From positions 1 through 28,563 of IMG/VR virus record IMGVR_UViG_3300032226_000477: a stretch of 28,563 nucleotides of DNA; one strand, 5' to 3'. Position 1 is the first letter of the stretch. Each line of letters opens with the position of its first letter. This DNA comes from a virus. Lineage: Duplodnaviria > Caudoviricetes. The position numbers and the translations under genes were made by a program. Shown here one piece after another: positions 275 to 27,925 of the stretch. The notes under the pieces were generated by a model. That model did not search any database. It had not been told where the DNA came from and saw only the letters and a list, made by a program, of their open reading frames with translations.

Positions 275-865
275 GTGGCTTTAATCTCCAAGGGTGAGGC
301 CGCCAAGCGCCTTGGCCGCGATCCAGCCAAAATCACCAAACTGATCAAAGATGGAAAATTGCGCACGTATAAGCCCATAGGCCAGCGCGAGCAAGTTGAC
401 GAAGACGACATTGAGGCAATACGAATTGACCTAAAACTTGGCGAAAAATTTACGCCAAACACAATGCGCCCAATTGAACCAGATAATCCAGGCGCGGAGC
501 GCGATGCGCGATCTACTGTGCCAGCAAATAAAAAAAGGATTGCCGATCTAACCGAAGAAGACTTAAATCTATTTGATAGCAAAGGAAAGCTAGACGCAGT
601 AGCCTGCCGCGCATGGGGCGAGTTTGAGAAATCACGCAAACTTCAGGTCGAACGCCTAGCCCTGGAGGGCGAGTACGTGCTTGCCGCCGAAGTCGGGCCA
701 CGATTTGAACGCGCGATGCTCACGATTCAAAAAGGCGTGCTTGCAACGCCAAGTAGACTAAAAGCGCTACAACCCGATCTGTCACAAGCGGTTCTTGGCT
801 CCCTTGACACGCTGCTACGCGAGGCGCTAGAAAGAGCTGTGGATGATTCAATCAATGCCAATTAG
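275..865 (+). CDS. terS: Terminase small subunit (N-terminal HTH, Nu1-like helical C-terminus)
   Basis: N-terminal HTH LISKGEAAKRLGRDPAKITKLIKDGKL; helical C-terminus ending LLREALE; overlaps the start of terL. Confidence 0.8.
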   Translation: MALISKGEAAKRLGRDPAKITKLIKDGKLRTYKPIGQREQVDEDDIEAIRIDLKLGEKFTPNTMRPIEPDNPGAERDARSTVPANKKRIADLTEEDLNLFDSKGKLDAVACRAWGEFEKSRKLQVERLALEGEYVLAAEVGPRFERAMLTIQKGVLATPSRLKALQPDLSQAVLGSLDTLLREALERAVDDSINAN

Positions 866-2792
866 AAGCGTTGACGATTTATTGCGGCAATCAATTCAGC
901 CGCTAAAACCAAAAGAAAAGCTATCGCGCAGCGACTGGGCCGAACGTCATTTTCAGGTAACTAAAGGTAGCAGCACTGGCAAATGGAAAACAAGGCCATA
1001 CCAAAGGGAAATTCTTGACGCATGGGACGACCCAAGGATATGGCGCACCTCGGTAATGAAATCATCGCGGGTTGGTGCCACCACCTTGCTAAACATTGAC
1101 GAGTGCTATTCAATTCACTGGGAGCCATGCGATACATGCACCGTGCAGCCGACTACTGGCGATGCCGAAAAATACAGCAGAGACACATTTGACTCCTTAA
1201 TTGAAAACGTAGACGCACTAACAGAGCTATTTTCAAAATGCAAGCACCGCGACGGCACAAACTCAATCCTCGAAAAATACATCAACGGCGCATCGCTAAA
1301 GTTTATTGGCGCCAATAGTCCTAACGGTTTTCGTCGTGTCACCTATCGCATTGTCCGAGCCGATGAAACCAGCGCTTACAAAGCTGGCGGCGCAGGCAAG
1401 GAAGGCGATCAAATCGAGCTACTACTAAACAGAACGATTGACTACCACGATCGACTATTTATTGATTGCAGCACGCCAACGATTGAAGGATTTGATCGCA
1501 TTGAAGATGCGTTCAAATTAGGAGATCAGCGTCATCGCTACCTTCCGTGTCCGCATTGCGGTTGGTACCAAACGCTTTCCGCTGCAGCATTCACCCCAGG
1601 CGCGGACAAAAGCAAGCCGGGTGGTTTTTGGTGGGAACCCGGTAAACCAACAAGCGTAGTTTACATTTGCGAGAGTTGCGATAACCCAATTCAGCATAGC
1701 CAAAAATTTGAAATGGATCTACACGGCGAATGGCGCCCAAGCGCACCGCCGAACATTGACCCAAACGGCAGGGAACACCGCAGCTATCACATCTGGGCGG
1801 GCATATCTTATCAAGCTAACGCAAGCTGGGCTAACATTGTTGCCGAACACGAAAAAAATCAAAACCAACCCGAGAAGGTCCAAGTGTTTATTAACACTTG
1901 GCTTGGTTTGCCCTACCGCGAAGATGCGTCAACACGCTTAGCCGCCGAAGGTTTAATGTCAAGGCGGGATAGCTACGCGAGCGGAGAAGTACCCGATGGT
2001 GTGCTAATGATCTGTATTGGCGTTGATATGCAAGACGATCGTGCGGAAGTTTTTGTTTGGGGATTTGGCCCAGGCAGCTCACCAGACCAAGCGACCGCCG
2101 AGCCGGAAAGGTGGTTAATCAAGCATGACGTAATTAGCTGCAGATACGACACCGCGGAAGTCTACAAACAACTTGACACCTATCTTTTTGATAGCTACTC
2201 CTTAAGTAATGGCTATGGGCTTAAGCCCGCTGTCATGGCAGTTGACTCCGGCGACGGCGAGCACTCTTCGTATGTCTACGAATACGCAAACAACCGCGCC
2301 AATCAAGGCGTCATCGCGACAAAGGGTATGGATCAAATAGGTAAACCGGCAATTAACAACGGAAAGCGCACTCAGTATGATTACAAGGGGCGCCCAAGCA
2401 AAACAAGCGCCCTAGTGTTCCAGGTTGGCACTGACCTTGTTAAAACAATCCTGATGGCACAGCTCAAGCATGGCCTGACATCTGGCGCTGGTGCAATTCA
2501 TTTTCCAAGAGACACAAGTAAAGAGTTTTTTGAGCAACTTGTTTCCGAGCGCCGTCATCACAAAATTGAAAACGGCCAACCCAAAGCGACATGGGTGCGG
2601 AAGCCGGGCATCAAGGCCGAAGCCCTTGACGGAACTGTTTACGCTTATGCAGCATTTCATCACGCAAAGAAAAAATACAATCCCAAAACAATGTGGGCGC
2701 AGCTTGCCGAAGACGCCGCCAGCGGCGGTAAACCTAGGCCAGAAGCATCCCCAGTGGCTTTCAACCTGCTGGAAGGGCAGCAGGTTTATTAG
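843..2792 (+). CDS. terL: Terminase large subunit, lambda gpA family (alternative start ATG 855)
   Basis: Walker A-like VMKSSRVGAT, Walker B IVRADE, STPT motif, CPHCG...CESC, nuclease motifs IGVDMQ and EALDGTVYAYAA. Confidence 0.95.
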   Translation: MIQSMPIRSVDDLLRQSIQPLKPKEKLSRSDWAERHFQVTKGSSTGKWKTRPYQREILDAWDDPRIWRTSVMKSSRVGATTLLNIDECYSIHWEPCDTCTVQPTTGDAEKYSRDTFDSLIENVDALTELFSKCKHRDGTNSILEKYINGASLKFIGANSPNGFRRVTYRIVRADETSAYKAGGAGKEGDQIELLLNRTIDYHDRLFIDCSTPTIEGFDRIEDAFKLGDQRHRYLPCPHCGWYQTLSAAAFTPGADKSKPGGFWWEPGKPTSVVYICESCDNPIQHSQKFEMDLHGEWRPSAPPNIDPNGREHRSYHIWAGISYQANASWANIVAEHEKNQNQPEKVQVFINTWLGLPYREDASTRLAAEGLMSRRDSYASGEVPDGVLMICIGVDMQDDRAEVFVWGFGPGSSPDQATAEPERWLIKHDVISCRYDTAEVYKQLDTYLFDSYSLSNGYGLKPAVMAVDSGDGEHSSYVYEYANNRANQGVIATKGMDQIGKPAINNGKRTQYDYKGRPSKTSALVFQVGTDLVKTILMAQLKHGLTSGAGAIHFPRDTSKEFFEQLVSERRHHKIENGQPKATWVRKPGIKAEALDGTVYAYAAFHHAKKKYNPKTMWAQLAEDAASGGKPRPEASPVAFNLLEGQQVY

Positions 2793-2796
2793 GGGG

Positions 2797-2825
2797 TTGC
2801 GTTCGGGCGGACAGGGGTGTAGGAT
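2797..2825 (+). promoter_or_regulatory. Sigma70-type promoter for the intergenic non-coding RNA
   Basis: TTGCGT (2797-2802), 17-nt spacer, TAGGAT (2820-2825), right after the terL stop; predicted TSS near 2832. Confidence 0.6.
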
Positions 2826-2831
2826 GGGCGC

Positions 2832-3100
2832 AATCCAACGTCGAGCAAAGTAGCGGAACACCGCCAAACGCCGTCTAGGATTTTCGGGAAAGGGAGTTTC
2901 GGCTTCCGAGTACCCTTGAAAGCGCGTGGGCTCCCCGGATACCTTGACATTGGGAGCATCTAGCCCCTCACAACACGCCTGACGACGGCGTAAGCCAGAA
3001 ACCGCTTTTAAGCGGTCGCGTGGAGCTTCCCAAGAGGGGGAATAACTGGAAGCCTAGGGGTATCACACAAAGCCTCCGATTCATCGGGGGCTTTGTGCTA
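2832..3100 (+). ncRNA. Putative ~270-nt structured non-coding RNA containing a hammerhead ribozyme
   Basis: No ATG on + between predicted TSS and terminator. Helices: GCGG/CCGC 2853-2864; GGGAGU-UUCG-GCUUCC 2892-2907 with GAA/AGUA E-loop; GCUCCC/GGGAGC 2930-2957; hammerhead; GCUUCC/GGAAGC 3025-3053. Confidence 0.7.
2967..3025 (+). ncRNA. Type I hammerhead ribozyme, predicted cleavage 3' of C3017 (GUC)
   Basis: Stem I CACGC 2974-2978/GCGUG 3018-3022 (extended by CUC/GAG after an ACAA bulge); core CUGACGA 2979-2985; stem II GGC-GUAA-GCC 2987-2996; GAAA 2998-3001; stem III ACCGCU-UUUA-AGCGGU 3001-3016; C3017. Confidence 0.85.
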
Positions 3101-3102
3101 TT
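3066..3102 (+). terminator. Intrinsic terminator-like hairpin closing the ncRNA unit
   Basis: CACAAAGCCTCCGAT (3066-3080) is complementary to ATCGGGGGCTTTGTG (3083-3097) with one G-U; the U-rich tail is imperfect. Confidence 0.7.
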
Positions 3103-3138
3103 CACCTAGACTAGAATCACCCCACAAGCACGGCACCA

Positions 3139-3702
3139 GTGAGCACGATCCCGTCCCAATTTAGAGCGGGGGATTTTGTTTCCTGGGTTGAAGATGAAGC
3201 CCCGGCGGGGACAACGGCTATCCGCGCCTACCTGCGGACCAATGCGGCCTCAGGGGCGGTCCTAGACGCGACGGCAAACGGCAACGACTGGGCCTTCAGG
3301 GTTTCCGCTGCCACCTCAGCCACCTTGACCGCCGGGACCTACCTGGCGCAGTTTGTGGCGATCGTGGCGACCAACCCGGTCAGCTACCGCGAGGCACGGT
3401 TCACAGTGCTGCCAAGCCTAGCCTTCACTGGCAGTCCAACTGCGATTGAGACAAGAAGTAAGCTAAAGATTCGATACGATGAAATACAGGAAGCAATTCG
3501 GATAGTAACGACCAGCGCTCAAGAATATCAAATTGGCGTTGGTGGTGGTGGTCGCAAAGTTCGCCGCGCTGATTTGCCAGAGCTAAGAAAAGAACGCGAT
3601 GAAATACGCGCTCAATTAACAGCAGAAGAACGCGCCTCGGACCTCGCTAATGGCAGAGGCGATCCCGACGCTCTCTACACTAGGTTCACACCAAGTTATT
3701 GA
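3139..3702 (+). CDS. Head completion / head-tail joining protein, gpW-like C-terminus with extra N-terminal domain
   Basis: Between terL and portal; C-terminal EYQIGVGGGGRKVRRADLPELRKERDEIRAQL resembles gpW. Confidence 0.7.
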   Translation: MSTIPSQFRAGDFVSWVEDEAPAGTTAIRAYLRTNAASGAVLDATANGNDWAFRVSAATSATLTAGTYLAQFVAIVATNPVSYREARFTVLPSLAFTGSPTAIETRSKLKIRYDEIQEAIRIVTTSAQEYQIGVGGGGRKVRRADLPELRKERDEIRAQLTAEERASDLANGRGDPDALYTRFTPSY

Positions 3703-5236: not shown

Positions 5237-7378
5237 ATGCCCTCGCGCACCGTGCCCCAAGCTGGCGTCCAACTTGAGCCAATGAATGACGGTGATGCCA
5301 GCGCATCTATCGGCATTTTTGGTGACATCGGTTGGGATGTGACCGCCGAAGATGTAGCCGCCGCTGTTGCGCAGGCAAAGGGTAAACCATTAAATGTTGA
5401 CATCTTTAGCTACGGCGGAGATGCCCTACAGGCTCTTGCAATTTATCAAATTCTTTCGGCGCATGATGCCGAAGTAACGACCAACGTGCTTGGCGTAGCC
5501 GCATCCGGTGGCAGCGTCATTGCAATGGCTGGTAAATATCGCAAGGTTGCCGTCAACGCTGCTTTGATGATTCATAATCCCTGGACAATGACAATTGGCG
5601 ATGCAACTGAGCATCGCAAACAAGCCAATATGCTTGACGGCCTTCAATCCGCGTATCTATACACATACTCCAGCGCAACAGGCATTCCAACCGCCGCCAT
5701 TCAACCCTACCTAACGGAAGAACGTTGGATGTTCGGCGAAGAAGCAATGGCCCTTGGCTTTGCAACCGAAGCCCCCGAGCCCATCAAAGCCTTTGCCAGC
5801 ATTGCACCCCCGCCCGCCGATCGTTTCCACCAAATTCCCGCCGACCTAAAAGCCATGGCGGGCATCAGCGCGGAAGTCTCGGTTGAAATCACCGATCCAA
5901 CCGATCCAACCGATTCCCCCGAAGACCCTGAACCTGAGGTTAGCGGGCCACCCAATGCCGTGCTTGAGCCTATGGCGAAAACGGCAGATCCCACCCCATC
6001 GACTATGACTAGCCTTAGCAGTGAACAGCCTACCCCACAAGCCGCCACTCTCCCGATGACCGTTGAAACCACCCAAGCGGATGCGGCGCTCGCGGAGCGC
6101 GAGCGCATCCAGTCCATTCAAGGAATGGTCGCCACAAAGGGCCTTCCCGACGAGTTTGCCCTTGAATTAGTCAACAGCGGAAAGTCCGTAGCTGAAGCCC
6201 GTCATGCCGTTCTTGATCGACTGCCTGGCGTAACCCGCCACTCCACTGAACGCGGAGCCGTAGCCAGTCTCACCGCAAGCGGTATTGATCTTTCCGAAAA
6301 AGATTGCAAGGCTTACAGTCTTCAAAACGTTTTCCGGCATCTAGCCGAGCCCACTAATGCAGCCTATCGCGACGCGATCGGCTTTGAGATGGAGCTGCAT
6401 CAAGAGCTTCAAAAACGTCACGCCCGGTCCGCTGCTGGCGTCCTTGTCCCCCACAACATTTTTGCCGTCAACGCTCGTCCGCCTGGTTTCCGCCCGCAAG
6501 CCGTTCAGCGCACGGACAATTTTAGCGCTGGTGGGGCTCTTGTGTCAACCGATCGCCTTGATGGTCAATTCGTAGACCTTCTGCGCAATATGTCGGCCTT
6601 TATGAGGACTGGAATTACCGTCCTTAATGGCCTTTCTGGAAACGTTGAGATTTCCAAGCAGACTGGCCCTAGTACCACTTTCTGGGTAGGCGAAGGCGGC
6701 GATGTCACCGAAAGCGACCTCTCTTATGGCCTGGTGAATATGTCGCCCAAAACCTTGGGCGCTCGGGTTGCCATTTCGCGTCGAGCCTTGATTCAAACAA
6801 GTCCCGACATCGAAAACCTCAACCGCAATGACCTGCTCAAGCAAATTGGCTTGGGCATTGACAAGGCGATTGGCTACGGCACCGGATCTTCGTCTCAACC
6901 GCTAGGTCTTAAGAATATGACCGCACTTGGCGGTGTCACGTTCTCTGGCGGCAAAACTGCAACATTCAACACTCTGCAGGGCGGCGGAACCGGAAATTGC
7001 GGCACTTGGGAGCAGTGGGTGCTACTTGAAACCGAGTTGTCCAGCGCCAACGTCGATGCCAGCACAATGGCTTACATCTTCAACGGAGCAATGCGCGGCG
7101 GGCTTAAGACCACGCTTCGTGATTCCGTAGCTGGCGCTGAATACATCTTTACCGACGACAAAACCGTAAACGGTTATGGCACTATCGTCAGTAACCAGAT
7201 TCAGTCAAATGACGCCTTCTTTGGGGATTGGCCCGAGGCCCTTCTTGGCTTCTGGTCTGGCGTTGATCTCGTCGTAGACCCCTACACTCGCTCCAGTCGC
7301 GGAGAAGTTGTCTATACCGCATTCCAGGACACCGACTTTGGTGTTCGGCGTCCCGAAGCGTTCGTGATTGGTAGCTGA
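5237..7378 (+). CDS. ClpP-type (S14) prohead protease fused to major capsid protein (HK97 fold)
   Basis: N-terminal GVAASGGSVIAMAG...LMIHNPW; acidic Pro-rich linker; scaffold-like AERERIQSI; capsid motifs WVGEG, PKTLGARVAISRR, FGDW, VDPYT, DFGVRRPEAF. Confidence 0.92.
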   Translation: MPSRTVPQAGVQLEPMNDGDASASIGIFGDIGWDVTAEDVAAAVAQAKGKPLNVDIFSYGGDALQALAIYQILSAHDAEVTTNVLGVAASGGSVIAMAGKYRKVAVNAALMIHNPWTMTIGDATEHRKQANMLDGLQSAYLYTYSSATGIPTAAIQPYLTEERWMFGEEAMALGFATEAPEPIKAFASIAPPPADRFHQIPADLKAMAGISAEVSVEITDPTDPTDSPEDPEPEVSGPPNAVLEPMAKTADPTPSTMTSLSSEQPTPQAATLPMTVETTQADAALAERERIQSIQGMVATKGLPDEFALELVNSGKSVAEARHAVLDRLPGVTRHSTERGAVASLTASGIDLSEKDCKAYSLQNVFRHLAEPTNAAYRDAIGFEMELHQELQKRHARSAAGVLVPHNIFAVNARPPGFRPQAVQRTDNFSAGGALVSTDRLDGQFVDLLRNMSAFMRTGITVLNGLSGNVEISKQTGPSTTFWVGEGGDVTESDLSYGLVNMSPKTLGARVAISRRALIQTSPDIENLNRNDLLKQIGLGIDKAIGYGTGSSSQPLGLKNMTALGGVTFSGGKTATFNTLQGGGTGNCGTWEQWVLLETELSSANVDASTMAYIFNGAMRGGLKTTLRDSVAGAEYIFTDDKTVNGYGTIVSNQIQSNDAFFGDWPEALLGFWSGVDLVVDPYTRSSRGEVVYTAFQDTDFGVRRPEAFVIGS

Positions 7379-8004: not shown

Positions 8005-8321
8005 TCACCGAAGACCTGGATCTGTTCTTTGCCGATTTTGGCGTCAGCTTTACCGCTGGCGCCATTTCCGGTATGTGCATCAAAGATATGTCAGGTTTTG
8101 GCATTCTTGACGATCGCATCGTAGATCCAGGTCACGTAGTTTTAGTTAAAACATCTGCGTTCAATAATCTTTTTTCAGGCATTAGTGCAACTGTTGCTGG
8201 TCAGCCTTTTTTAATAAAAGATGCCATGCCTGTTGAGGATGGCGCATTTTCACTTGTTACGCTAAAAGGAATTGATCTACCAAGCGCTCCGGTATCAATC
8301 TTGAATGGCGATTTTCTATGA
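8001..8321 (+). CDS. Head-tail connector, gpFII-like, with C-terminal extension ending ILNGDFL
   Basis: EDLDLFFADFGV start and DGAFSLVTL near the end match FII-like head-closure proteins; GTGA/ATGA overlaps with neighbours. Confidence 0.7.
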   Translation: MITEDLDLFFADFGVSFTAGAISGMCIKDMSGFGILDDRIVDPGHVVLVKTSAFNNLFSGISATVAGQPFLIKDAMPVEDGAFSLVTLKGIDLPSAPVSILNGDFL

Positions 8322-11300
8322 CTACCTATCAAACGCAAACTTATAGATTTCGGCAGCTATTTAGCACTTTAGCAGCAATCACAGCCAGTAACCCAGTATT
8401 ACTGGAAGGAGAAAAATGGCAAGAAAAAGATGCAGTTACTGGTTTATTTACTGGTCGCACTAAAACGGGTAAAGATGGCGTAGTCACAGGCACCGCACCC
8501 AATCAGACGATCACCGGCACGGCGTTCAACGATCTGCCGTTTGATCCCGCCGCCGGCGGCGGCGCCACAGACGCGCAGCTTAGGGACCGGGCCACACACA
8601 CCGGCACCCAGCCAGCGAGCACGATCACCGGCCTATCCCCTGCGGCCACCATTGGCAATACTCTAAATTCTATTATTGGCCTGCAGTCAGCCCCTCAAAC
8701 AGGCGCGTTTCTTGTCAAGCAATACTATGTCAATCACAATGAAGCAGCCATAGCGCTGCCATCGCCGCTCGAAGCCGGACCCGGCGGCGGCCCGTTCCAA
8801 TGGGAGCCTGATCTCCCCAGGTCGTTACACGATGGCGGCCTGTTCATCTCGCCGACCGTCCCCTATGACGGAACTAGGGCCAGCCTGGTGAACTTTCTCG
8901 GCAAGGTCGGAGAAACGGCCCCCAACGCTAACGGCGTGTGGCGGCGGGTCTTCTCTGGCAATGTCATGGCGGATTGGTTTGGTTGCGTCAGCAACAGAAT
9001 TGCTGACGACTACCCGTCAATCCAAAAAGCCCTAGACGTTGTGTTCGAGATGAACAGCGTAGAGAGGGTGGGCAAGTGGTTCGTAGCGAAAACAAACGTT
9101 GTGCAAATTGCCGGCAACTGCCGCATCAAAAGATACCTTGAAGTTGGAGCAAGAATGATGCTCCAAGGGAGTGAAAATACTTTGGTCTACCCTGTCCAGG
9201 ATTCTAGTTTTGCCGGGGACTACAACGTAGCCGTCCCCCCCGTTATCTACGTGGATCCAAATTGCGTTTTATATCGACCAAACGACTACAACTGCGCCGT
9301 CGTGCTGAAAGGCGACGCCTCTAAGTTGGATGGAATTGTGGTCGATGGGTATGAGATGACCTTCGGGTCATGGTATCCAATCATCAGGATTGCAACATCC
9401 CCCCTAGGGGTTGGAGGGTCTTACGCATTTAACGGGGAGCTGTATGTCATCGACCCCAACGATCCCAAGCAAAACAAGCCCCTAGAGCTGGAAACGCTTG
9501 TCATACCATCGCACCAATACGGTGATGCCTGGTATGCAGGCTTTCAGTTAAAGGCAATGGGCGGCAATGTTACCGGCATTGGCTCAGGAACTTCCACTTA
9601 TGCGCAAATCACACCCGCCAACCCCTACCAGTGGGATGTTGTAAGCGGCACCATCCCTACCGGGTTTGCCGTATCAAAGTCTGGATGGGTTACCTGTAAC
9701 GCAGCAACAGCTGTGATTGGCAAGCAATTTGTAACGATTCGCGTAGCTGATGCTAGCGGTAGCACAGCGCAGCGAGACCTCGTTCTGGAGGTTACCGGGA
9801 AATACATAGAATTGCCCTTAGTTGGCATTCCTCCCGCTACCATAAATCAAGCCTATAAATATACCTTCAATGTCCTCAACAACGATGGCGTTGCCCATTA
9901 TTGGTGGATAGTTAATGGCCCCGAGGGCCTGGTGATGAACCGTACTACCGGAGAGGTCACCGGCACGCCCGCCGCCGACTCGTTCGGACAGTACACGCTA
10001 AAAGTGGCAATAACAAGCGCCACCAGTACAGCCAACTTTGAGGCCAATACTCTCATTGATGAAATCTTTATAGACTTCACGGTTGAAAATACCGCATACC
10101 CATCATTATATGGCAGCCTTTCAGATGCGGCCGTAGGGGTGGCTTACCAGGGGATCATTTACCCTGTCGGCGGAGTTGGTCCGTTTACCTGGCAGATTGA
10201 CCCTGCTCGTTCCACCGGGAACAACCAGGCCGGGTATCCAACCACAACGTCGCCTGCTCCGGGATTAACCCTTTCGACTGATGGCATCAGAGCGCTCATA
10301 ACAGGAACGCCTACAACGTCTGGGAACTTCTCGCTTTTCCTTATTGGCACTGATTCAACTGGGAAATCGGTAAGTGGGCTTATCAGCTTTTTAGGGAACA
10401 CATGGGCAGTGAGACCACAGCTGAAGACATCCTTGATCTGGAATCTTCCTGTCGCCGTCAAGGGCCAGCCATATTCTTATCAAGTTGAGGCTACTGTACC
10501 AGGCTGCACCTTTAGCGCAAAGGCATTGCCTTCCGGCCTGGCGATCTCCGCCGAAGGCCTCATTTCAGGCACTCCTCTTGGCGGCAGATATGCCAATGGG
10601 GTTGCGTGTGAATGGAGCGTCAAGATGAGCAATTTCACAGTAAGAAATTTTAGGGGCGCAGCAGGCGTCAAAATTGACGGATCAAGCAATGTCCACATTT
10701 TTGAAAACTTCTTTATCAATGCGTGTGATGTAGGAATTTCTTCTGACAATATGTTCGACTCACGGTTACAGAGTTTCTATATCTACAACACAAGAATTGG
10801 CCTGCAAATGAAGGGCGGAACTGCCGCTAATACCTACACTAACGGAAGAATTGAATACATTCACGAGCATGGTGTTACCGCCTTGTTTTCTCCAGACAAT
10901 GTATGGAGCACTGTCTACTGGGATACCTGCGGGTACGCTGCAATAAGCGCTGATCGCTCCGATTACTGGACAATGAGCGGCTGCTTCTTTTTTCGAGGTG
11001 GGCGGCGCGTCCCGCCAAGGGGCAAATACTATATGCCCGATAGTCCCGTGGACATTTCTACTCACATTAAAGCTATTAACTGCAAAGATTGGGTTATCGG
11101 CGCAAATAACATGGTGCGAGGATGCGACAACGGGGGGACAAGTTCAACTTTCTTTAGGAAGTACGAATCAAACGGCAGAAGGCTTTACATCCGGCCTTAT
11201 GCTTCCATTGTCATGGAGTTCTGCAAGGGGTTCAAGGTAACCGGCAATGGGCTAGACGGCTGCACAAGAAAGTCTATCGTCTCAGTAGAAAGCGAATATG

Positions 11301-12796
11301 AATTTGACTACAACGATGCCCTTTTGGGCGGGAACACGGTCCATCGAACGAACCAATTTGAAACCTTCTCGCAGAATGATCAACCCGTCATAAATTTACT
11401 GAAGAACCCTGCCAAGGGTGATTTCACGCCCGAAGGCACCGAGGACAATATAGACACTTATTTTCCTAACAATGTGCTTTTGCTTCAAGGAAACGAGTTT
11501 GCCGATAGAAGCGCAAGGGGCTTAACCGTAAACAATACAAACGTCACAATCAACACATCTGTTTACAAGTTTGGTACGGGCAGCTTCTTTTTTAATGGAA
11601 CAAACGCATTGCTGACTGTGGGTGTAGCTGACAACAACAACGTCGCTGCTCCGTTTTATTTTGGCACAGATGATCTGACTTTAGAGTTTTTGGTTCATCC
11701 GCTTAGGAACAATGTAAGTCAAACCCTGATTGACTTTGGGGCTACGTCTGAATCTGCCCCATTCGCGCTCATTCTTGACGCAAATGGAAGGCTAGCGCTA
11801 GCCAGGAATCGCAGCACAGGCGGACAAGCCATAGATGCCACCAGTACGCGCGTCATCCCGATAAATGCCTTCACTGAAATCCGTATGACTATAACCAGAG
11901 GTGTGGCTAGAGTCTATATTGATACTACCCTGGAGCTGACCATTTCGTTTGCCGGAAGGTTCATCATATCCGGGTTTAATAGACCAATCATGGGTCGCGG
12001 TGGGTTTACGGGGGCAACCGACTTTTTTCAGGGATACATGCAGCAGATTAGGATAACTAAACCTGCTTCCAGGTATGGGCAGCTATCAGCGCTGAGGCCG
12101 CAAACTCGCGCATTCAGCATTGTAAATCTTGGTTCCCTGCCGCCGGAAACCCTTGTGTATTCCCCTGCTGCTGCGGAAACGGAATTTTTCTTTGCCGACC
12201 GATCTAATTCTATTAAGCTGGGCCCCAGCTCCTCCATTCAGAAGCCAATCTATGTAACCAGAAGATCAAAGAACGACATCGTTACCGATCGAAGGGCGGG
12301 CCTGGGCTCCTACAGTGCGGGCCAGGTGAACCCGTCCTACTATATTTATCGATTTCAAAAGGCAGCTGAGACGGGGGTTACGGCCTACACATTCCAGACC
12401 TGTGAGTTCAGGGCATGGGCCGCACGGCCGGGCTACCCAGAGGAGCTGGATAGGATCCGAGGGAAAAAACTGCTCTTATGTCTTTGGGCAAGGTCTGCCA
12501 AGAAGAACTCAGTATCTTTGTTTACGCAGTTCTACGCCGGAACGAGCGGCAACAATTACAGGGTTGACGGGGGCTTTCACACTAAGTTCAACGTGCCTCC
12601 ATTCTGGAGAAAATATACATTCACCATTGAAGCCCCAGACCTGGATCTAACCCTCGTTGATCCATACACTTCCAATGCCTTATTAAAGTTCTACCTCGAC
12701 GACAAGTCGCAGACCTATGACGTGGAATTTGGGGCGATGTTTTTGTACGAAGATGATGGGAAGTTTGGGTTTACCCCAATTTATGACCAACCATGA
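8318..12796 (+). CDS. Large multidomain fibre/spike: Mtd_N-like N-terminus, pectate-lyase-like beta-helix, putative Ig repeats, LamG domain, CBM-like C-terminus
   Basis: NPVLLEGE...KTGKDG...AFNDLPF (Mtd_N-like); LRDRATHTGTQPASTITGL fibre repeat; WFGC...DDYPSIQKALD; about four Ig-like repeats (e.g. LPSGLAISAEGLISGTP); KFGTGSFFFNG...DLTLEFLV...GYMQQIRIT (LamG). Confidence 0.8.
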   Translation: MTTYQTQTYRFRQLFSTLAAITASNPVLLEGEKWQEKDAVTGLFTGRTKTGKDGVVTGTAPNQTITGTAFNDLPFDPAAGGGATDAQLRDRATHTGTQPASTITGLSPAATIGNTLNSIIGLQSAPQTGAFLVKQYYVNHNEAAIALPSPLEAGPGGGPFQWEPDLPRSLHDGGLFISPTVPYDGTRASLVNFLGKVGETAPNANGVWRRVFSGNVMADWFGCVSNRIADDYPSIQKALDVVFEMNSVERVGKWFVAKTNVVQIAGNCRIKRYLEVGARMMLQGSENTLVYPVQDSSFAGDYNVAVPPVIYVDPNCVLYRPNDYNCAVVLKGDASKLDGIVVDGYEMTFGSWYPIIRIATSPLGVGGSYAFNGELYVIDPNDPKQNKPLELETLVIPSHQYGDAWYAGFQLKAMGGNVTGIGSGTSTYAQITPANPYQWDVVSGTIPTGFAVSKSGWVTCNAATAVIGKQFVTIRVADASGSTAQRDLVLEVTGKYIELPLVGIPPATINQAYKYTFNVLNNDGVAHYWWIVNGPEGLVMNRTTGEVTGTPAADSFGQYTLKVAITSATSTANFEANTLIDEIFIDFTVENTAYPSLYGSLSDAAVGVAYQGIIYPVGGVGPFTWQIDPARSTGNNQAGYPTTTSPAPGLTLSTDGIRALITGTPTTSGNFSLFLIGTDSTGKSVSGLISFLGNTWAVRPQLKTSLIWNLPVAVKGQPYSYQVEATVPGCTFSAKALPSGLAISAEGLISGTPLGGRYANGVACEWSVKMSNFTVRNFRGAAGVKIDGSSNVHIFENFFINACDVGISSDNMFDSRLQSFYIYNTRIGLQMKGGTAANTYTNGRIEYIHEHGVTALFSPDNVWSTVYWDTCGYAAISADRSDYWTMSGCFFFRGGRRVPPRGKYYMPDSPVDISTHIKAINCKDWVIGANNMVRGCDNGGTSSTFFRKYESNGRRLYIRPYASIVMEFCKGFKVTGNGLDGCTRKSIVSVESEYEFDYNDALLGGNTVHRTNQFETFSQNDQPVINLLKNPAKGDFTPEGTEDNIDTYFPNNVLLLQGNEFADRSARGLTVNNTNVTINTSVYKFGTGSFFFNGTNALLTVGVADNNNVAAPFYFGTDDLTLEFLVHPLRNNVSQTLIDFGATSESAPFALILDANGRLALARNRSTGGQAIDATSTRVIPINAFTEIRMTITRGVARVYIDTTLELTISFAGRFIISGFNRPIMGRGGFTGATDFFQGYMQQIRITKPASRYGQLSALRPQTRAFSIVNLGSLPPETLVYSPAAAETEFFFADRSNSIKLGPSSSIQKPIYVTRRSKNDIVTDRRAGLGSYSAGQVNPSYYIYRFQKAAETGVTAYTFQTCEFRAWAARPGYPEELDRIRGKKLLLCLWARSAKKNSVSLFTQFYAGTSGNNYRVDGGFHTKFNVPPFWRKYTFTIEAPDLDLTLVDPYTSNALLKFYLDDKSQTYDVEFGAMFLYEDDGKFGFTPIYDQP

Positions 12797-21326: not shown

Positions 21327-21937
21327 AAACGATCCGCGTCTACGGCCAGCTGGCTCGCTTCCTGAGGCGCCGCACCTTCCGCGCTGAGGTGGCCAGCGCG
21401 GCCGAGGCCGTGCGATTCCTGCTGGCCAACTTCCCCCAGGTGGAGAAGCACATGGCGGATCAGCACTATCGCGTGAGTATCGGGGCTCGGGCTCTTGAGC
21501 CCGAGGATCTCCACGAACCGGCCGGGCGGGCAGAGATTACGATCGTGCCCGTGATCGGCGGCGCTGGCGCCGTGGGGCGAGTCATCGGCGGAGTGGCCCT
21601 GGTCGCGGCTGCAATTGTCATAGGTCAACCGTGGCTAGGCCCCTTGGCGTTCTCGATGATCACCGGCGTAGGCGCCAGCTTGGCCCTGGGCGGCGTTGCG
21701 CAACTGCTTACCCCAGTGCCGCGCATTGCCGGGCCGGGCGCGACCAGTGCCGTAGGTGCCATGGCCAGCGCAAACAGCGCCAAGCCTGACAGCAGCGACC
21801 CACGGCGTAATTCATTGTTCAGTTCCATTCAAAACACGACTAAACAAGGCGTGCCGTTGCCGATAATTTTTGGCGAGGTAATCGTCGGTTCGGTAGTGGT
21901 TTCGGCCGCGATCGACGTTGATCAGGTGTGGGCATGA
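21323..21937 (+). CDS. Tail assembly protein, gpI-like
   Basis: IRVYGQL, IVPVIGGAG, LALGGVAQLLTP, QGVPLPIIFGEVIVGSVVVSA. Confidence 0.92.
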   Translation: MKTIRVYGQLARFLRRRTFRAEVASAAEAVRFLLANFPQVEKHMADQHYRVSIGARALEPEDLHEPAGRAEITIVPVIGGAGAVGRVIGGVALVAAAIVIGQPWLGPLAFSMITGVGASLALGGVAQLLTPVPRIAGPGATSAVGAMASANSAKPDSSDPRRNSLFSSIQNTTKQGVPLPIIFGEVIVGSVVVSAAIDVDQVWA

Positions 21938-24900
21938 GTAGCGGCGGGCGCACATCTGACAGGCCGCTGATCGGCGGCTCCGGCGGCCAGAGGAGTCGGC
22001 GCCAGCAAAGCCAACCAGTCCAGCAGCAATATGTCGTCGCGGCGCAGCCGGAGCAGTACGTTCCAACCGAAGCAACTAACAGCCTTTTCTCGTCTAGCTA
22101 CATTAAGATTCTCGATGCGATCGGCGAAGGGGAAATCCAAGGCCTAGTAAATGGCTTGCGGTCGATCTACCTAGACGGCACACCAATTCAGAACCCTGAT
22201 GGCAGCCTGAACTTTCGGGGCGTCAGCGTAGAAATACGCAATGGCACTCAGTTTCAGGACTATATCCCTGGACACGACGAAACAGCCAGCGAGACCGGCG
22301 TCGGCGTAGTGGTTACGGATTTAGAGCCGATCACTCGCACGATCACCGAGCCGGTCGATGCCGCTCGGGTGATCGTGACCCTGCCGACATTGCAAGAATT
22401 TACCGATAAAGGCGACGTACTGGGCTCCAGTGTTTACCTGCAAATTTATGTTCAGTACAACGGCGGCGGCTACCACCTCGCGCTCGAAGACACTATCACG
22501 GGCCGAACCTCGCAGCAATACCAGCGGCAATATCTGATCAACTTGTCAGGCCCGTTCCCGGTTGATATTCAGGTGAATCGGGTTACCCCTGACAGCACAA
22601 GCTCAAAAGTAAGCAATGCGTTTAGCTGGAGCAGTTTTTCGGCGATCACTTACGCCAAGCTGGCTTACCCTAATACTGCATTGATAGGATACAGAATCGA
22701 AGCCGACCAGTTTAACGGGGCGATCCCTTCCCGGAGCTGCCGGGTGCGGGGGCTGAAAGTGCAGATCCCCAGCAATGCCACGGTTGACTACGCCACCGGG
22801 CGATTGATCTATTCCGGCATTTGGAATGGAACATTCGGCGCCGCGCAGTGGACGAGCGACCCCGCCTGGTGCTTGTGGGCATTGCTCACCTCCCGCCGGT
22901 TCGGCTTTGGCGATCACCTCGACGCCAGTAAGCTCGATCGGTGGGCGTTTTTTTCCGCCAGCCAGTACGCCTCGGCGCTGGTGCCTGATGGATTTGGCGG
23001 CTGGGAGCCGAGGTTTAGTTGCAATGCCAACATTCAAACCGCTGATGATGCCTATCGGTTGATCGGCGATCTGTGTTCCGTGATGCGTTGCATGCCCTAT
23101 TGGGCCGCTGGTGCGCTCACGATCTCCCAGGACCGCCCGGCCGATCCGTCGTTTTCGTTCACCCTGGCCAATGTCGGCCCCGATGGATTCAGCTACAGCG
23201 GCAGCAGCCTGAAGACCCGACCAACCGTGGCCGTGGTCAGGTATCAGGATCTGGACCTCCGAAGCGAAAATTTCGAGGTAGTCGAGGATGCCGCCGGCAT
23301 CGCCCGTTATGGGGTGATAAAGGTCGAGATCGAGGCAATTTTTTGCACCAGCCAAGGCCAAGCCCGGCGCCTCGGGAAGTGGCTGCTTTACAGCGAGGTC
23401 AACGAAGGCGAGGTGGTCGCGTTCACCTCGGGCCTTGCAGCCGGAGCCGTCGTGCGGCCTGGGCAGATCGTCCAGGTCGCCGACCCCCTCCGGGCGGGAT
23501 CTCGCCGTGGCGGCGCCATTGCAGCAGCCACCACCACCGCAATCGCCCTGGACGACGCCACGGGCCTCACCGTGGCCAACAGCCCCACGCTCAGCGTGAT
23601 CTTGACCAATGCCACGGTGGAGACCCGACCAGTTACGTCAATCACGGGCAACGTGGTGGCGGTGTCGCCCGCGTTCAGCTCGGCACCGCAGGCCAACTCG
23701 ATTTGGATCTGGGAAACCTCCGACATTTTGGCCGCGCTTTGGCGCGTGCTGAGCGTCGGAGAGTCTGACGGGGTGCGATACCCAGTCACGGCCCTGGCTC
23801 ACAACCCCAGTAAGTACGGCTTCGTCGAGCGGGGCTTGGCGCTGACCAAGCGCGACATCACCGACCTCGATATTGTCCCGAACCCGCCGCAGAACCTCAC
23901 CGGCGCAGAGGTGCTTTACGAAGCCGGCGGCCGGGTCGCGGCCAAGCTGCAGCTCAGCTGGAGCTTGGTGCCAGGGGTCAGCACCTACCGGGTCAGCCAT
24001 CGCCGGATCCCAGGGAACTGGGAGCAGCGCAATGTCGGCGCGCCATCCATTGAGATCCTCGACACCCAGGCGGGAACCTACGAAATCCTGGTGGCCTCGG
24101 TAAAGACGGGGATTATCTTCAGCCGGCCAGCGCAGCTGCGATTCGTGGCCTTTGGGAAAACGGCGCCGCCCGTAAACGTGACTGGCGCTTCGCTGCTGCC
24201 GATCAACGAGGCCAGTGGAATCCTAAGCTGGGATCGCGCCAGCGACCTGGACGTGCGGGTGGGCGGGCGCGTGCTGATCCGGCACAGCCCACGCCTCGAC
24301 ACCCCGGAGTGGGGGGAGGCGACGAGCGTTGCGCATGCCGCCGCCGGCAACGAGGTGCAAAAACAGGTGCCGTTGTTGGAGGGCAGCTACTTGCTGAGGT
24401 TCGAGGATGATGGTGGGCGCCAGTCCCCCGAGGTGACCTATGTGGTCACCGACCTACCGCAGCCGCAGCCGCGCCTCTTGGTTAAGACTTACGCGGAAGA
24501 TGCGGAGAGCCCGCCATTCAATGGCAACGGGTTGAATATGCTTTATAGCGAATACTTTGGCGCGCTAATCATAGGTAGTGTGTCCCTGTGGGACTCAGCC
24601 GAAGGCTTGGTTGACTCTAGGGCGGGAATGATTGATGATCCTAGCGCCGCGCTGACGGAGCCCGTCGCGGCGCAGGGCGAATATGAGTTCGGCTCTACAT
24701 ACTCAATGAATGGCGTATATGATGTAAACATACGGCGCCGGTTGCAGACGCGAGCAACAAGCCAGCTTGACCTGTTTGATAGTCGCACTGGGCTATTTGA
24801 CGATGCGGCGGATGATTTTGACGGCGATTTCACAAGCGCCGTGGATGCTGCGCTGCTGGTACGGTCTACGCAAGACAATCCATCTGGATCCCCACAGTGG

Positions 24901-25281
24901 TCCGAATGGCGCGAGGTGGCGAATGGGATCGCGCGGGGGCGGGGTTTTCAGTTCAAGCTGGTAGCCACCAGCGGCGACAGTTCACAGAACATCCTGGTCG
25001 AAGAGCTTGGTGCCGAGATGGAACTGCAGCAACGCATCGAGCAGTCCGGCACCCTGTCAGCCCCGGCGAGCACTTATGCGGTGACCTTTGCCGAGCGATT
25101 TTACGAGGCGCCGAACATTGGTGTCACGGGTTACAACATGGCGGCGGGCGAATACTGGGTCATCAATCCTACATCAATCACGCGATCGGGCTTTAGTCTC
25201 ACCTTCAGGAACAGTGCCGGAGCGGCTGTGGCTAGACAGTTTAACTATACTGCTATTGGATTTGGTCGGGAGGTCACCTAA
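21934..25281 (+). CDS. Central tail fibre / host specificity protein, gpJ-like (ATG 21934 preferred)
   Basis: DAIGEGEIQGL, YPNTAL, WTSDPAWC, EPRFSCN, CTSQGQARRLGKW, FN3-like segments; ATGA overlap with gpI. Confidence 0.93.
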   Translation: MSSGGRTSDRPLIGGSGGQRSRRQQSQPVQQQYVVAAQPEQYVPTEATNSLFSSSYIKILDAIGEGEIQGLVNGLRSIYLDGTPIQNPDGSLNFRGVSVEIRNGTQFQDYIPGHDETASETGVGVVVTDLEPITRTITEPVDAARVIVTLPTLQEFTDKGDVLGSSVYLQIYVQYNGGGYHLALEDTITGRTSQQYQRQYLINLSGPFPVDIQVNRVTPDSTSSKVSNAFSWSSFSAITYAKLAYPNTALIGYRIEADQFNGAIPSRSCRVRGLKVQIPSNATVDYATGRLIYSGIWNGTFGAAQWTSDPAWCLWALLTSRRFGFGDHLDASKLDRWAFFSASQYASALVPDGFGGWEPRFSCNANIQTADDAYRLIGDLCSVMRCMPYWAAGALTISQDRPADPSFSFTLANVGPDGFSYSGSSLKTRPTVAVVRYQDLDLRSENFEVVEDAAGIARYGVIKVEIEAIFCTSQGQARRLGKWLLYSEVNEGEVVAFTSGLAAGAVVRPGQIVQVADPLRAGSRRGGAIAAATTTAIALDDATGLTVANSPTLSVILTNATVETRPVTSITGNVVAVSPAFSSAPQANSIWIWETSDILAALWRVLSVGESDGVRYPVTALAHNPSKYGFVERGLALTKRDITDLDIVPNPPQNLTGAEVLYEAGGRVAAKLQLSWSLVPGVSTYRVSHRRIPGNWEQRNVGAPSIEILDTQAGTYEILVASVKTGIIFSRPAQLRFVAFGKTAPPVNVTGASLLPINEASGILSWDRASDLDVRVGGRVLIRHSPRLDTPEWGEATSVAHAAAGNEVQKQVPLLEGSYLLRFEDDGGRQSPEVTYVVTDLPQPQPRLLVKTYAEDAESPPFNGNGLNMLYSEYFGALIIGSVSLWDSAEGLVDSRAGMIDDPSAALTEPVAAQGEYEFGSTYSMNGVYDVNIRRRLQTRATSQLDLFDSRTGLFDDAADDFDGDFTSAVDAALLVRSTQDNPSGSPQWSEWREVANGIARGRGFQFKLVATSGDSSQNILVEELGAEMELQQRIEQSGTLSAPASTYAVTFAERFYEAPNIGVTGYNMAAGEYWVINPTSITRSGFSLTFRNSAGAAVARQFNYTAIGFGREVT

Positions 25282-27532: not shown

Positions 27533-27925
27533 TTGCACACCATCGAAGGGTCCGAGCTTGTGTCAAAACGTGTTACTAAGCATCGGTTCCGGCGAGCAAT
27601 TATCAACGCTTGGGACAAGTGCTGCGCCTACTGTGGATACAAGCCAAGCAGCATAACACTAGATCACGTAACTCCCAAGGCAAAGGGTGGAACTACTCAA
27701 TGGTCTAATTTGGTCCCAGCTTGCACTTCATGCAATGGATCTAAAGGGCATTCTGATGTATGGGACTGGTATCAGTTGCAGTTATTTTACTGTGCAGCTA
27801 GGGAGCAAAAGATCAGGGATTGGCTGACTAACGAAAAACCCCCGCTGGTTGGCGAGGGTTGCAAGGTTGACGGAGGGGTTGATCAGGCGGCAGCTGTTTC
27901 AGTCTCGGCAGCGTCGTCTTCGTAG
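27533..27925 (+). CDS. HNH endonuclease
   Basis: CAYCG...TLDHVTPKAKGG...NLVPACTSCNGSKG; TTG start is uncertain. Confidence 0.88.
   Translation: MHTIEGSELVSKRVTKHRFRRAIINAWDKCCAYCGYKPSSITLDHVTPKAKGGTTQWSNLVPACTSCNGSKGHSDVWDWYQLQLFYCAAREQKIRDWLTNEKPPLVGEGCKVDGGVDQAAAVSVSAASSS
27834..27860 (-). terminator. Probable intrinsic terminator for the AbrB-like gene
   Basis: AACCC-C-CGC...GCG-A-GGGTT imperfect hairpin with an A5 run on + (U-tract on -), about 22 nt past the AbrB stop. Confidence 0.5.

Follow-up and report, generated by a model that had tools for sequence, protein, structure and literature searches.

The DNA analysed here (the window) is a viral record of 28,563 nt that carries a lambda-type head and tail operon. 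Between its terminase gene, terL, and the gene of a head-tail joining protein lies a structured RNA element, whose parts and neighbours are listed in Table 1. The terminase relatives of the phage share merely 30–37% identity, and no related loci were found when they were sought through the head-tail joining protein. A structured leader (2832–2935) precedes the element and contains a 44-nt hairpin able to mask the start of its first half (half A). The promoter-like site was recognized by eye and lies below the threshold of the promoter scan, and the hairpin 3′ of the element (3066–3097), which the terminator scan did not call, is possibly a weak terminator or a 3′-end protector. No tRNA was found in the window. 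Elsewhere in the window, a 1492-aa tail-fibre-like ORF (8318–12796) sits between the head and tail-tube genes, separate from a J-like gene (21928–25281), a fused protease-major capsid gene occupies 5237–7378, and an HNH endonuclease (27533–27925) follows the endolysin.

Table 1. Features of the element and its surroundings in the window
Feature	Coordinates	Strand	Evidence or remark
terL, lambda-type terminase large subunit	843-2792	+	phrog_15, E 7.5e-179; upstream neighbour
Weak promoter-like site, TTGCGT-17-TAGGAT	2797-2825	+	7/12 to consensus
Long upstream hairpin; would mask half A start and P2 5′ strand	2892-2935	+	alternative fold in the window copy
Whole element: two-halved, doubly pseudoknotted RNA with inserted hammerhead	2924-3064	+	141 nt; parse, covariation, model match
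Half A start GCGUGG (N0 = G2924); G2928 pairs with C3046	2924-2929	+	N0 = N1.1 in 238/245
Hairpin P2, 2930-2935/2952-2957; loop with pseudoknot strand 2938-2945	2930-2957	+	100% paired, 4 columns tested; MI 1.0-1.8 bits
Conserved AUCU-AG linker and S1 5′ strand CCCCUC (2964-2969)	2958-2969	+	covariation
ACAA spacer, S1 to stem I; no stem I bulge	2970-2973	+	1-30 nt in relatives
Type I hammerhead; stem I 2974-2978/3018-3022	2974-3022	+	putative cut C3017^G3018
Half B start GCGUGGA (N1.1 = G3018), also stem I 3′ strand	3018-3024	+	conserved in hammerhead-less copies too
Hairpin S2, 3025-3030/3048-3053	3025-3053	+	98% of cells paired
CUA linker and pseudoknot strand GGGGUAUC (3057-3064), pairing with 2938-2945	3054-3064	+	covariation
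14-bp hairpin 3′ of the element	3066-3097	+	-24.3 kcal/mol
Head-tail joining protein	3139-3702	+	phrog_5774, E 1.9e-23; downstream neighbour

The hammerhead is, on sequence comparison, a real one, and the outer RNA carries it as an optional module. From its 5′ end it consists of CACGC (2974–2978), CUGACGA (2979–2985, with G5 at G2981), C2986, GGC-GUAA-GCC (2987–2996), A2997, GAAA (2998–3001), stem III (3001–3006/3011–3016), the GUC triplet (3015–3017) and GCGUG (3018–3022). The core C3-U4-G5-A6-N7-G8-A9 and G12-A13-A14 is satisfied at 2979–2985 and 2998–3000, A3001–U3016 forms the A15.1–U16.1 pair, and GUC serves as the NUH triplet. All hammerhead elements named in the initial annotation were located in the window at the positions it gave, in the right order and in type I topology, between terL and the head-tail joining gene, and the predicted cut after C3017 agrees with a GUC that stands directly before G3018. 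Searching with a type I descriptor that combines the core, the three stems and an NUH triplet gave a single site in the window, and 1 of 500 dinucleotide-shuffled sequences contained such a site; by itself the bare core pattern carries no significance, being present in 71 of 100 shuffles. When conservation of CUGANGA/GAAA and stem covariation were looked for in homologues, both were found, with three helices and an open stem I. The 2.1–1.1 pair covaries (C-G 22, G-C 22 and A-U 6 of 50 aligned homologues), and 4–5 of the first 5 pairs of stem III are formed in 102 of 109 family hammerheads.

Other details of that first description did not hold. The Rfam hammerhead models gave no report at E≤1 on the window nor at E≤10 on 2780–3160. 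The supposed stem I extension CUC/GAG past an ACAA bulge is paired in 43% of cells, lacks its middle pair in 47 of 50 homologues and contributes 0 kcal/mol; its bases instead form S1 (2964–2969/3034–3039) and S2 (3025–3030/3048–3053). The mismatch C2986·A2997 at 10.1/11.1 is present as reported, where the consensus, although not absolute, is a pair closing stem II, but it can hardly be called unusual, as 56 of 109 family hammerheads are mismatched there (G-C 49, A·A 30, U·U 17, C·A 8, G-U 3, A-U 1, A·C 1); outside the family, 4 of 38 complete hammerheads have C·A as well. Loop II is a GNRA tetraloop in 33 of the 109, the window copy included, and the stem I bulge proposed as its partner is not conserved; loop II might dock on S1.

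The initial annotation had also confined the feature to 2967–3025 and missed an enclosing RNA that reaches far beyond it, from 2924 to 3064. Each half of this outer RNA is built alike, with an NCG start, a 6-bp hairpin, a short linker and a tail that pairs into the loop of the other half; of the 245 copies among the matches listed, 176 have C-A at the end of one tail and 160 at the end of the other. The S2 loop holds CAA, the 3′ strand of S1 (GAGGGG, 3034–3039) and GAAUAACU (3040–3047). In an alignment of 50 copies, 96% of the main structure is paired and 252 two-sided changes occur in it, against a pairing of 35–45% when the strands are slid. S1 (CCCCUC 2964–2969/GAGGGG 3034–3039) is 97% paired with two-sided changes in 6 of 6 pairs, the pseudoknot 2938–2945/3057–3064 shows such changes in 8 of 8 pairs and has 6–10 bp in 138 of 140 copies, and S2 is formed in 119 of 119 matches listed for a pattern that does not require it. 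Single pairs covary as well, 2928–3046 being G-C in 37 and U-A in 13 of the 50 copies and G2963–C3031 being G-C in 47 and U-A in 2. A model made from 17 hammerhead-less copies alone matches the window at 2979–3069 with E 6.8e-8, under a rough calibration.

The family came to light in a scan for similar cores, which first exposed flanks common to several hammerheads and the window copy, and the later scans were built on those flanks. These yielded 85, at least 119 and 41 viral stretches, 12 genome stretches with diverse bacterial labels and at least 120 metagenome stretches. Left out were 28 of the 86 matches of one scan (chance hits, one re-added), 2 of 52 for the 50-copy alignment, 13 loci of the covariation set (permuted, truncated or with a long loop) and 5 of 120 metagenome loci; many letters that look invariant were fixed by the search patterns or the parser. 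At least 245 distinct nested copies were parsed, 115 with and 130 without a hammerhead, a ratio that reflects copy sets selected for or against the hammerhead and not a natural frequency, together with 17 permuted copies. With a pattern that does not require the hammerhead, 82 of 119 matches listed have a hammerhead core within 75 nt upstream. Since 130 of 245 nested copies among the matches listed lack the hammerhead, many with a linker of 1–5 nt between the halves, the outer RNA must be regarded as the unit. Where a family hammerhead is present, its NUH triplet directly precedes N1.1 in 109 of 109 cases, and a hammerhead cutting before N0 was found in 0 of 140 copies.

In the permuted order the hammerhead is followed by half B, a hairpin and half A. 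Among 41 stretches, 17 distinct permuted copies were parsed, several of them near-identical E. coli-type variants, and 17 of 17 start half B at the hammerhead cut. An unannotated permuted copy is present in 15 of 5426 E. coli genomes, lying between Q and holin in the one examined; a 95.7% identical copy follows the capsid gene of an unrelated T7-like Enterobacter phage, and another precedes tRNA-Met in Pectobacterium phage Pappous. From these occurrences we conclude that the cassette is mobile among unrelated phages. When the window element was compared by BLAST with cultured phages, it gave just weak partial matches to permuted copies, and one hammerhead-less copy gave none.

The strictest rule of the family concerns the first bases of the two halves, which are identical (N0 = N1.1) in 238 of 245 copies among the matches listed, as C/C in 99, G/G in 89, U/U in 45 and A/A in 5. 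A stands first in 6 of the 7 exceptions, and locus L404, counted as a mismatch, is a probable misparse. The rule holds in 162 of 169 copies after dereplication, in all 17 permuted copies and in 86 of 88 hammerhead-less copies (shuffle mean 27, maximum 43). Nearest-neighbour comparisons show that 51 of 54 changes alter both bases, and the mutual information between N0 and N1.1 is 1.63 bits, with the next-highest column at 0.32. The identity of N does not track GC content. No complementary third base was found in the flanks or loops, and there is no third covarying column. Strand exchange with stem I is ruled out as the cause, because the identity persists without the hammerhead, which leaves either a symmetric pair formed directly between the two N or an external partner common to both.

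No shared partner protein was found in 55 loci with long flanks, where the largest neighbour cluster is HNH (6 of 55), followed by terminases; one neighbour survey scanned 86 of 110 flanking ORFs, taken from a crude ORF caller. The element adjoins terL in 9 of these 55 loci, and its other neighbours are holin, lysis, NinG, HNH and integrase genes and tRNAs. Among the listed copies with full flanks, 48 of 95 without a hammerhead and 19 of 90 with one have a same-strand tRNA within 250 nt. For the 108 short-linker copies listed, 62 have same-strand tRNAs beside them and none has one on the opposite strand. An upstream T-arm lies within 60 nt in 60 of the listed copies, and in 25 of these N0 is tRNA position 75 (23 after C74; 20 of 51 after dereplication), with 3 copies at position 74, 1 at 76, 3 at 77 and 28 further from the tRNA. 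Judging from these positions, a cut just before N0 would yield CCA-ready tRNA ends in nearly all copies that start at positions 74–77.

Our preferred reading is that the hammerhead probably acts as the maturation module of a stand-alone phage RNA, its cut giving a two-piece RNA. It lies in the linker between the halves, with its cut register, on sequence comparison, exactly 5′ of the half B NCG. Cleavage between C3017 and G3018 would leave a 5′-OH on this NCG, the short stem I would release, and the freed end would dock in the conserved core, giving an RNA of two pieces that stay joined through S1 and the 8-bp pseudoknot. We hold these steps, from self-cleavage to the two-piece product taken together, to be very likely. 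In favour of maturation are the covariation of all helices, the cut register, its recurrence in every permuted copy parsed, the N0 = N1.1 rule, the position-75 register and the lack of a recurring partner protein in the 55 loci. Against it, hammerhead-less copies show that the N1.1 cut is dispensable or made otherwise.

The function that we prefer for the outer domain is that of a nucleolytic ribozyme cutting 5′ of the half A NCG, between C2923 and G2924, a proposal that we put forward tentatively. Together with the hammerhead cut at half B, this proposed cut at half A would give a two-piece RNA with the same kind of end on both halves, in which N0 and N1.1 would meet as symmetry mates. In tRNA arrays it would free a tRNA ending at C74, and the splitting of the late mRNA between terL and head genes would be a side effect. 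The evidence for a cut before N0 is positional, and host tRNA-processing nucleases or tight packing could explain it. Conceivably, and with similar reserve, the outer domain is a new self-cleaving class with a pseudo-two-fold, mutually embracing fold; with the hammerhead, there would then be two unrelated ribozymes making identical ends that possibly swap or assemble. This and the readings considered below, namely a binding RNA, end exchange, a dead insert and mRNA processing, are not all mutually exclusive.

In the closest competitor, which we regard as possible but less likely than not, the outer domain is a binding RNA (an aptamer, decoy or sponge) and no catalyst. Here N0 and N1.1 would recognize one and the same base in a partner that is symmetric or bound twice, such as a small nucleotide ligand, an RNA or a protein, and the hammerhead and host nucleases would merely trim the RNA. 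The rule of identity rather than complementarity, lacking a third covarying column, speaks for such a partner, as do the two-fold layout and the accessory, mobile, late-operon placement seen in the E. coli genomes and the T7-like phage. However, the identity would follow without any partner if the two N paired directly with each other on the symmetry axis. The standard of comparison for the base mix is the set of common mixed cyclic dinucleotide signals, and a mix of C/C, G/G, U/U and A/A without C/U or U/C misfits these.

A further reading, which we consider improbable, is end exchange, in which the identical ends left by cuts before N0 and N1.1 swap and religate into a circle (2924–3017, 94 nt) or a spliced product. 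Such an exchange would draw on the complementarity of N0 to hammerhead position 2.1 wherever N0 = N1.1 (47 of 50), on the ability of the half A start to replace the stem I 3′ strand, and on the existence of both nested and permuted forms. However, exchange with stem I is not the cause of the identity, as noted above, and an upstream tRNA would end up fused to half B. Sequencing runs also speak against it: part of the permuted E. coli-type copy is present in 20 of 24 runs listed, of which 4 were compared, all as contigs, and neither a skip nor a back joint occurs on the permuted homologue in 3 of 3 isolate RNA runs, whose coverage does not in itself prove transcription of that copy. The one back joint seen, in run X1 (probably DNA), includes 12 additional letters and is consistent with a nested copy that lacks the hammerhead.

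Whether the window copy cuts bears on the maturation reading, and we expect with high confidence that its hammerhead self-cleaves between C3017 and G3018. The C·A at 10.1/11.1 should slow cleavage; a natural U·U has been reported there, and other core-adjacent mismatches were rejected in the screen as described in the accessible text of that study (Perreault et al., 2011; PMC3088659). It is accordingly conceivable, though improbable, that this hammerhead is slow or dead, with its C·A, 3-bp stem II and competing hairpin, and that the RNA works uncut like the hammerhead-less copies. Pseudoknot-free folding favours the hairpin 2975–2979/2987–2991 (its pairs have a probability of about 0.9, those of stem I 0.04), the fold of 2960–3030 has a z-score of -0.79 and a minimum-energy fold other than the hammerhead, and decayed inserts are known in the family (L196, L200, L231). 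Yet no core letter is changed in the window copy and its stems I and III are whole, a mismatch of some kind at 10.1/11.1 is found in about half of the family hammerheads as counted above, and the hammerhead with S1 lies 2.7 kcal/mol lower than the competing hairpin with S1. Isolate RNA contigs cross the hammerhead site of the permuted homologue unbroken, but contigs cannot show ends.

Least likely, and doubtful on several grounds, is a free-standing type I hammerhead that splits the late mRNA between terL and head genes, which would suit the loci where terL is adjacent and the proposal, in the consulted part of PMC3088659, that prophage hammerheads process long transcripts, but the position of the cut follows the outer RNA and not the genes, the neighbours vary as set out above and are often same-strand tRNAs, and the products would stay paired through two pseudoknots. 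The initial annotation had offered processing of either an ncRNA or this mRNA; the former guess agrees with our reading, and the latter is unsupported as a purpose, since copies also stand in tRNA arrays and before terminator-like hairpins and occur without a hammerhead.

Taken by itself the hammerhead is ordinary, having the core type I features and departing from the class only in the 10.1–11.1 consensus and the Rfam score. Relative to the type I hammerheads of Perreault et al. (2011; PMC3088659), as far as the accessible text describes them, it shares the CUGANGA/GAAA/NUH core, type I stems I–III, a short stem II, a natural 10.1/11.1 mismatch and a phage intergenic site. In contrast, the family has a stem I of 3–5 bp, held by a foreign pseudoknotted domain and without a stem I bulge, and the window copy has C·A rather than U·U and falls below all Rfam hammerhead models. 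The four family motifs gave 0 matches in 11 supplementary files of that paper. Hammerhead cluster 1,533,398 is likewise a three-stem candidate missed by all six Rfam models; the comparison is by text only, as the accessible part of its preprint gives no sequence, flank or pseudoknot (bioRxiv 10.64898/2026.10.21.760802). In the permuted hammerheads and HRIMA motifs of Eckert et al. (2023; PMC10085705), so far as its available sections go, a hammerhead core also sits in a multi-pseudoknot architecture with natural permutation; there, however, the hammerhead itself is permuted, mostly in metatranscriptomes, and here a plain type I hammerhead lies in a permuted host RNA of DNA phages.

The outer RNA is uncatalogued and belongs neither to the HDV-like ribozymes or the introns nor to any of the Rfam 15 families tested. 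No Rfam 15 family matches the element in the window, in 8 hammerhead-bearing loci or in 20 hammerhead-less loci, and a RAGATH-5 match (E 7.2, 14.6 bits against 50) is at chance level. Group I, group II and permuted introns were rejected, with no Rfam intron match and no joint in the 3 isolate RNA runs (contigs), and, set against their general descriptions, twister, pistol, hatchet, glmS, T-box and anticodon-mimic RNAs do not fit. HDV-like ribozymes have a nested double pseudoknot of layout P1-P2-P3-P1.1-P4 with a catalytic C in J4/2. The covarying helices of the outer RNA come in another order, and the 20 hammerhead-less loci have no Rfam HDV match, so membership was rejected; as to a 5′ boundary at a tRNA 3′ end, 32 of the 60 T-arm-adjacent copies listed start at tRNA positions 74–77, and the window copy has no tRNA. 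The CCA-ready tRNA ends that a cut before N0 would give make for a likeness to theta (minimal HDV-like) ribozymes, which have been proposed to give such ends and which, in the sections at hand of Kienbeck et al. (2024; PMC10879173), are also compact, doubly pseudoknotted phage RNAs that start right at the tRNA 3′ end with free upstream sequence and a late-gene link. In contrast to these (same sections), the outer RNA has another helix order, no HDV core, a two-halved symmetry and an optional hammerhead; only a minority of its copies abut tRNAs, and its cleavage is putative.

GOLLD and ROOL are several hundred nt in size, against about 95–140 nt for the outer RNA, which has no Rfam match. They resemble it, in what the accessible text reports, as structured prophage RNAs without known function, often beside tRNAs (PMC5737381; PMC12286853). 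No description of the outer RNA was found in the literature searched, and a word search in the supplementary files of Fremin 2023 other than files 1–2 gave 0 matches.

The novelty lies in this host RNA. Its fold is compact, widespread and two-fold pseudo-symmetric, occurs in naturally circularly permuted forms, can do without its ribozyme and obeys a strict rule of base identity for which no internal pair accounts. For most ribozymes of bacteria and phages the role is described as open in the part of the source consulted (PMC6765202); here the hammerhead appears to have an identifiable substrate and purpose. Copies in E. coli lambdoid prophages and cultured phages make the proposals directly testable, and should the outer domain prove to cleave or to bind a ligand, it would found a new class of ribozyme or aptamer, whose size of ~95 nt lends itself to structure determination.

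Several variants surround the family. A sister RNA (L084 = L371 and L049 = L369, near positions 300 and 1500 of the matched strand), with 2 distinct sequences among 5 matches, has the same two-pseudoknot layout and a nested hammerhead with other conserved letters and halves starting UCWUA; neither L084 nor L049 matches model R1. In hammerhead-less L217, L292, L315, L250, L398, L413, L427, L474 and L483 a linker hairpin masks the half B start, resembling the role of stem I in hammerhead copies. Permuted copies (L283:339–545, L324:3011–3220, L326:2502–2707) lie within a clamp helix, AAGAGCA.../...UGCUCUU, which encloses other fillers in other phages, lambda-like ones included. L222, L177, L341/L342 and L259 have two copies per contig or a partial half A duplicate, and the permuted form could arise simply by tandem duplication. 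The hammerhead inserts of L237 and L321 have a U3-A8 covariant core, a variant reported in the accessible text of Perreault et al. (2011; PMC3088659). A·A or C·A at 10.1/11.1 also recurs in many unrelated type I hammerheads whose stem I is GGUUAA/UUAACC (for example L015, L025, L028, L041, L076 and L098, the last with two hammerheads).
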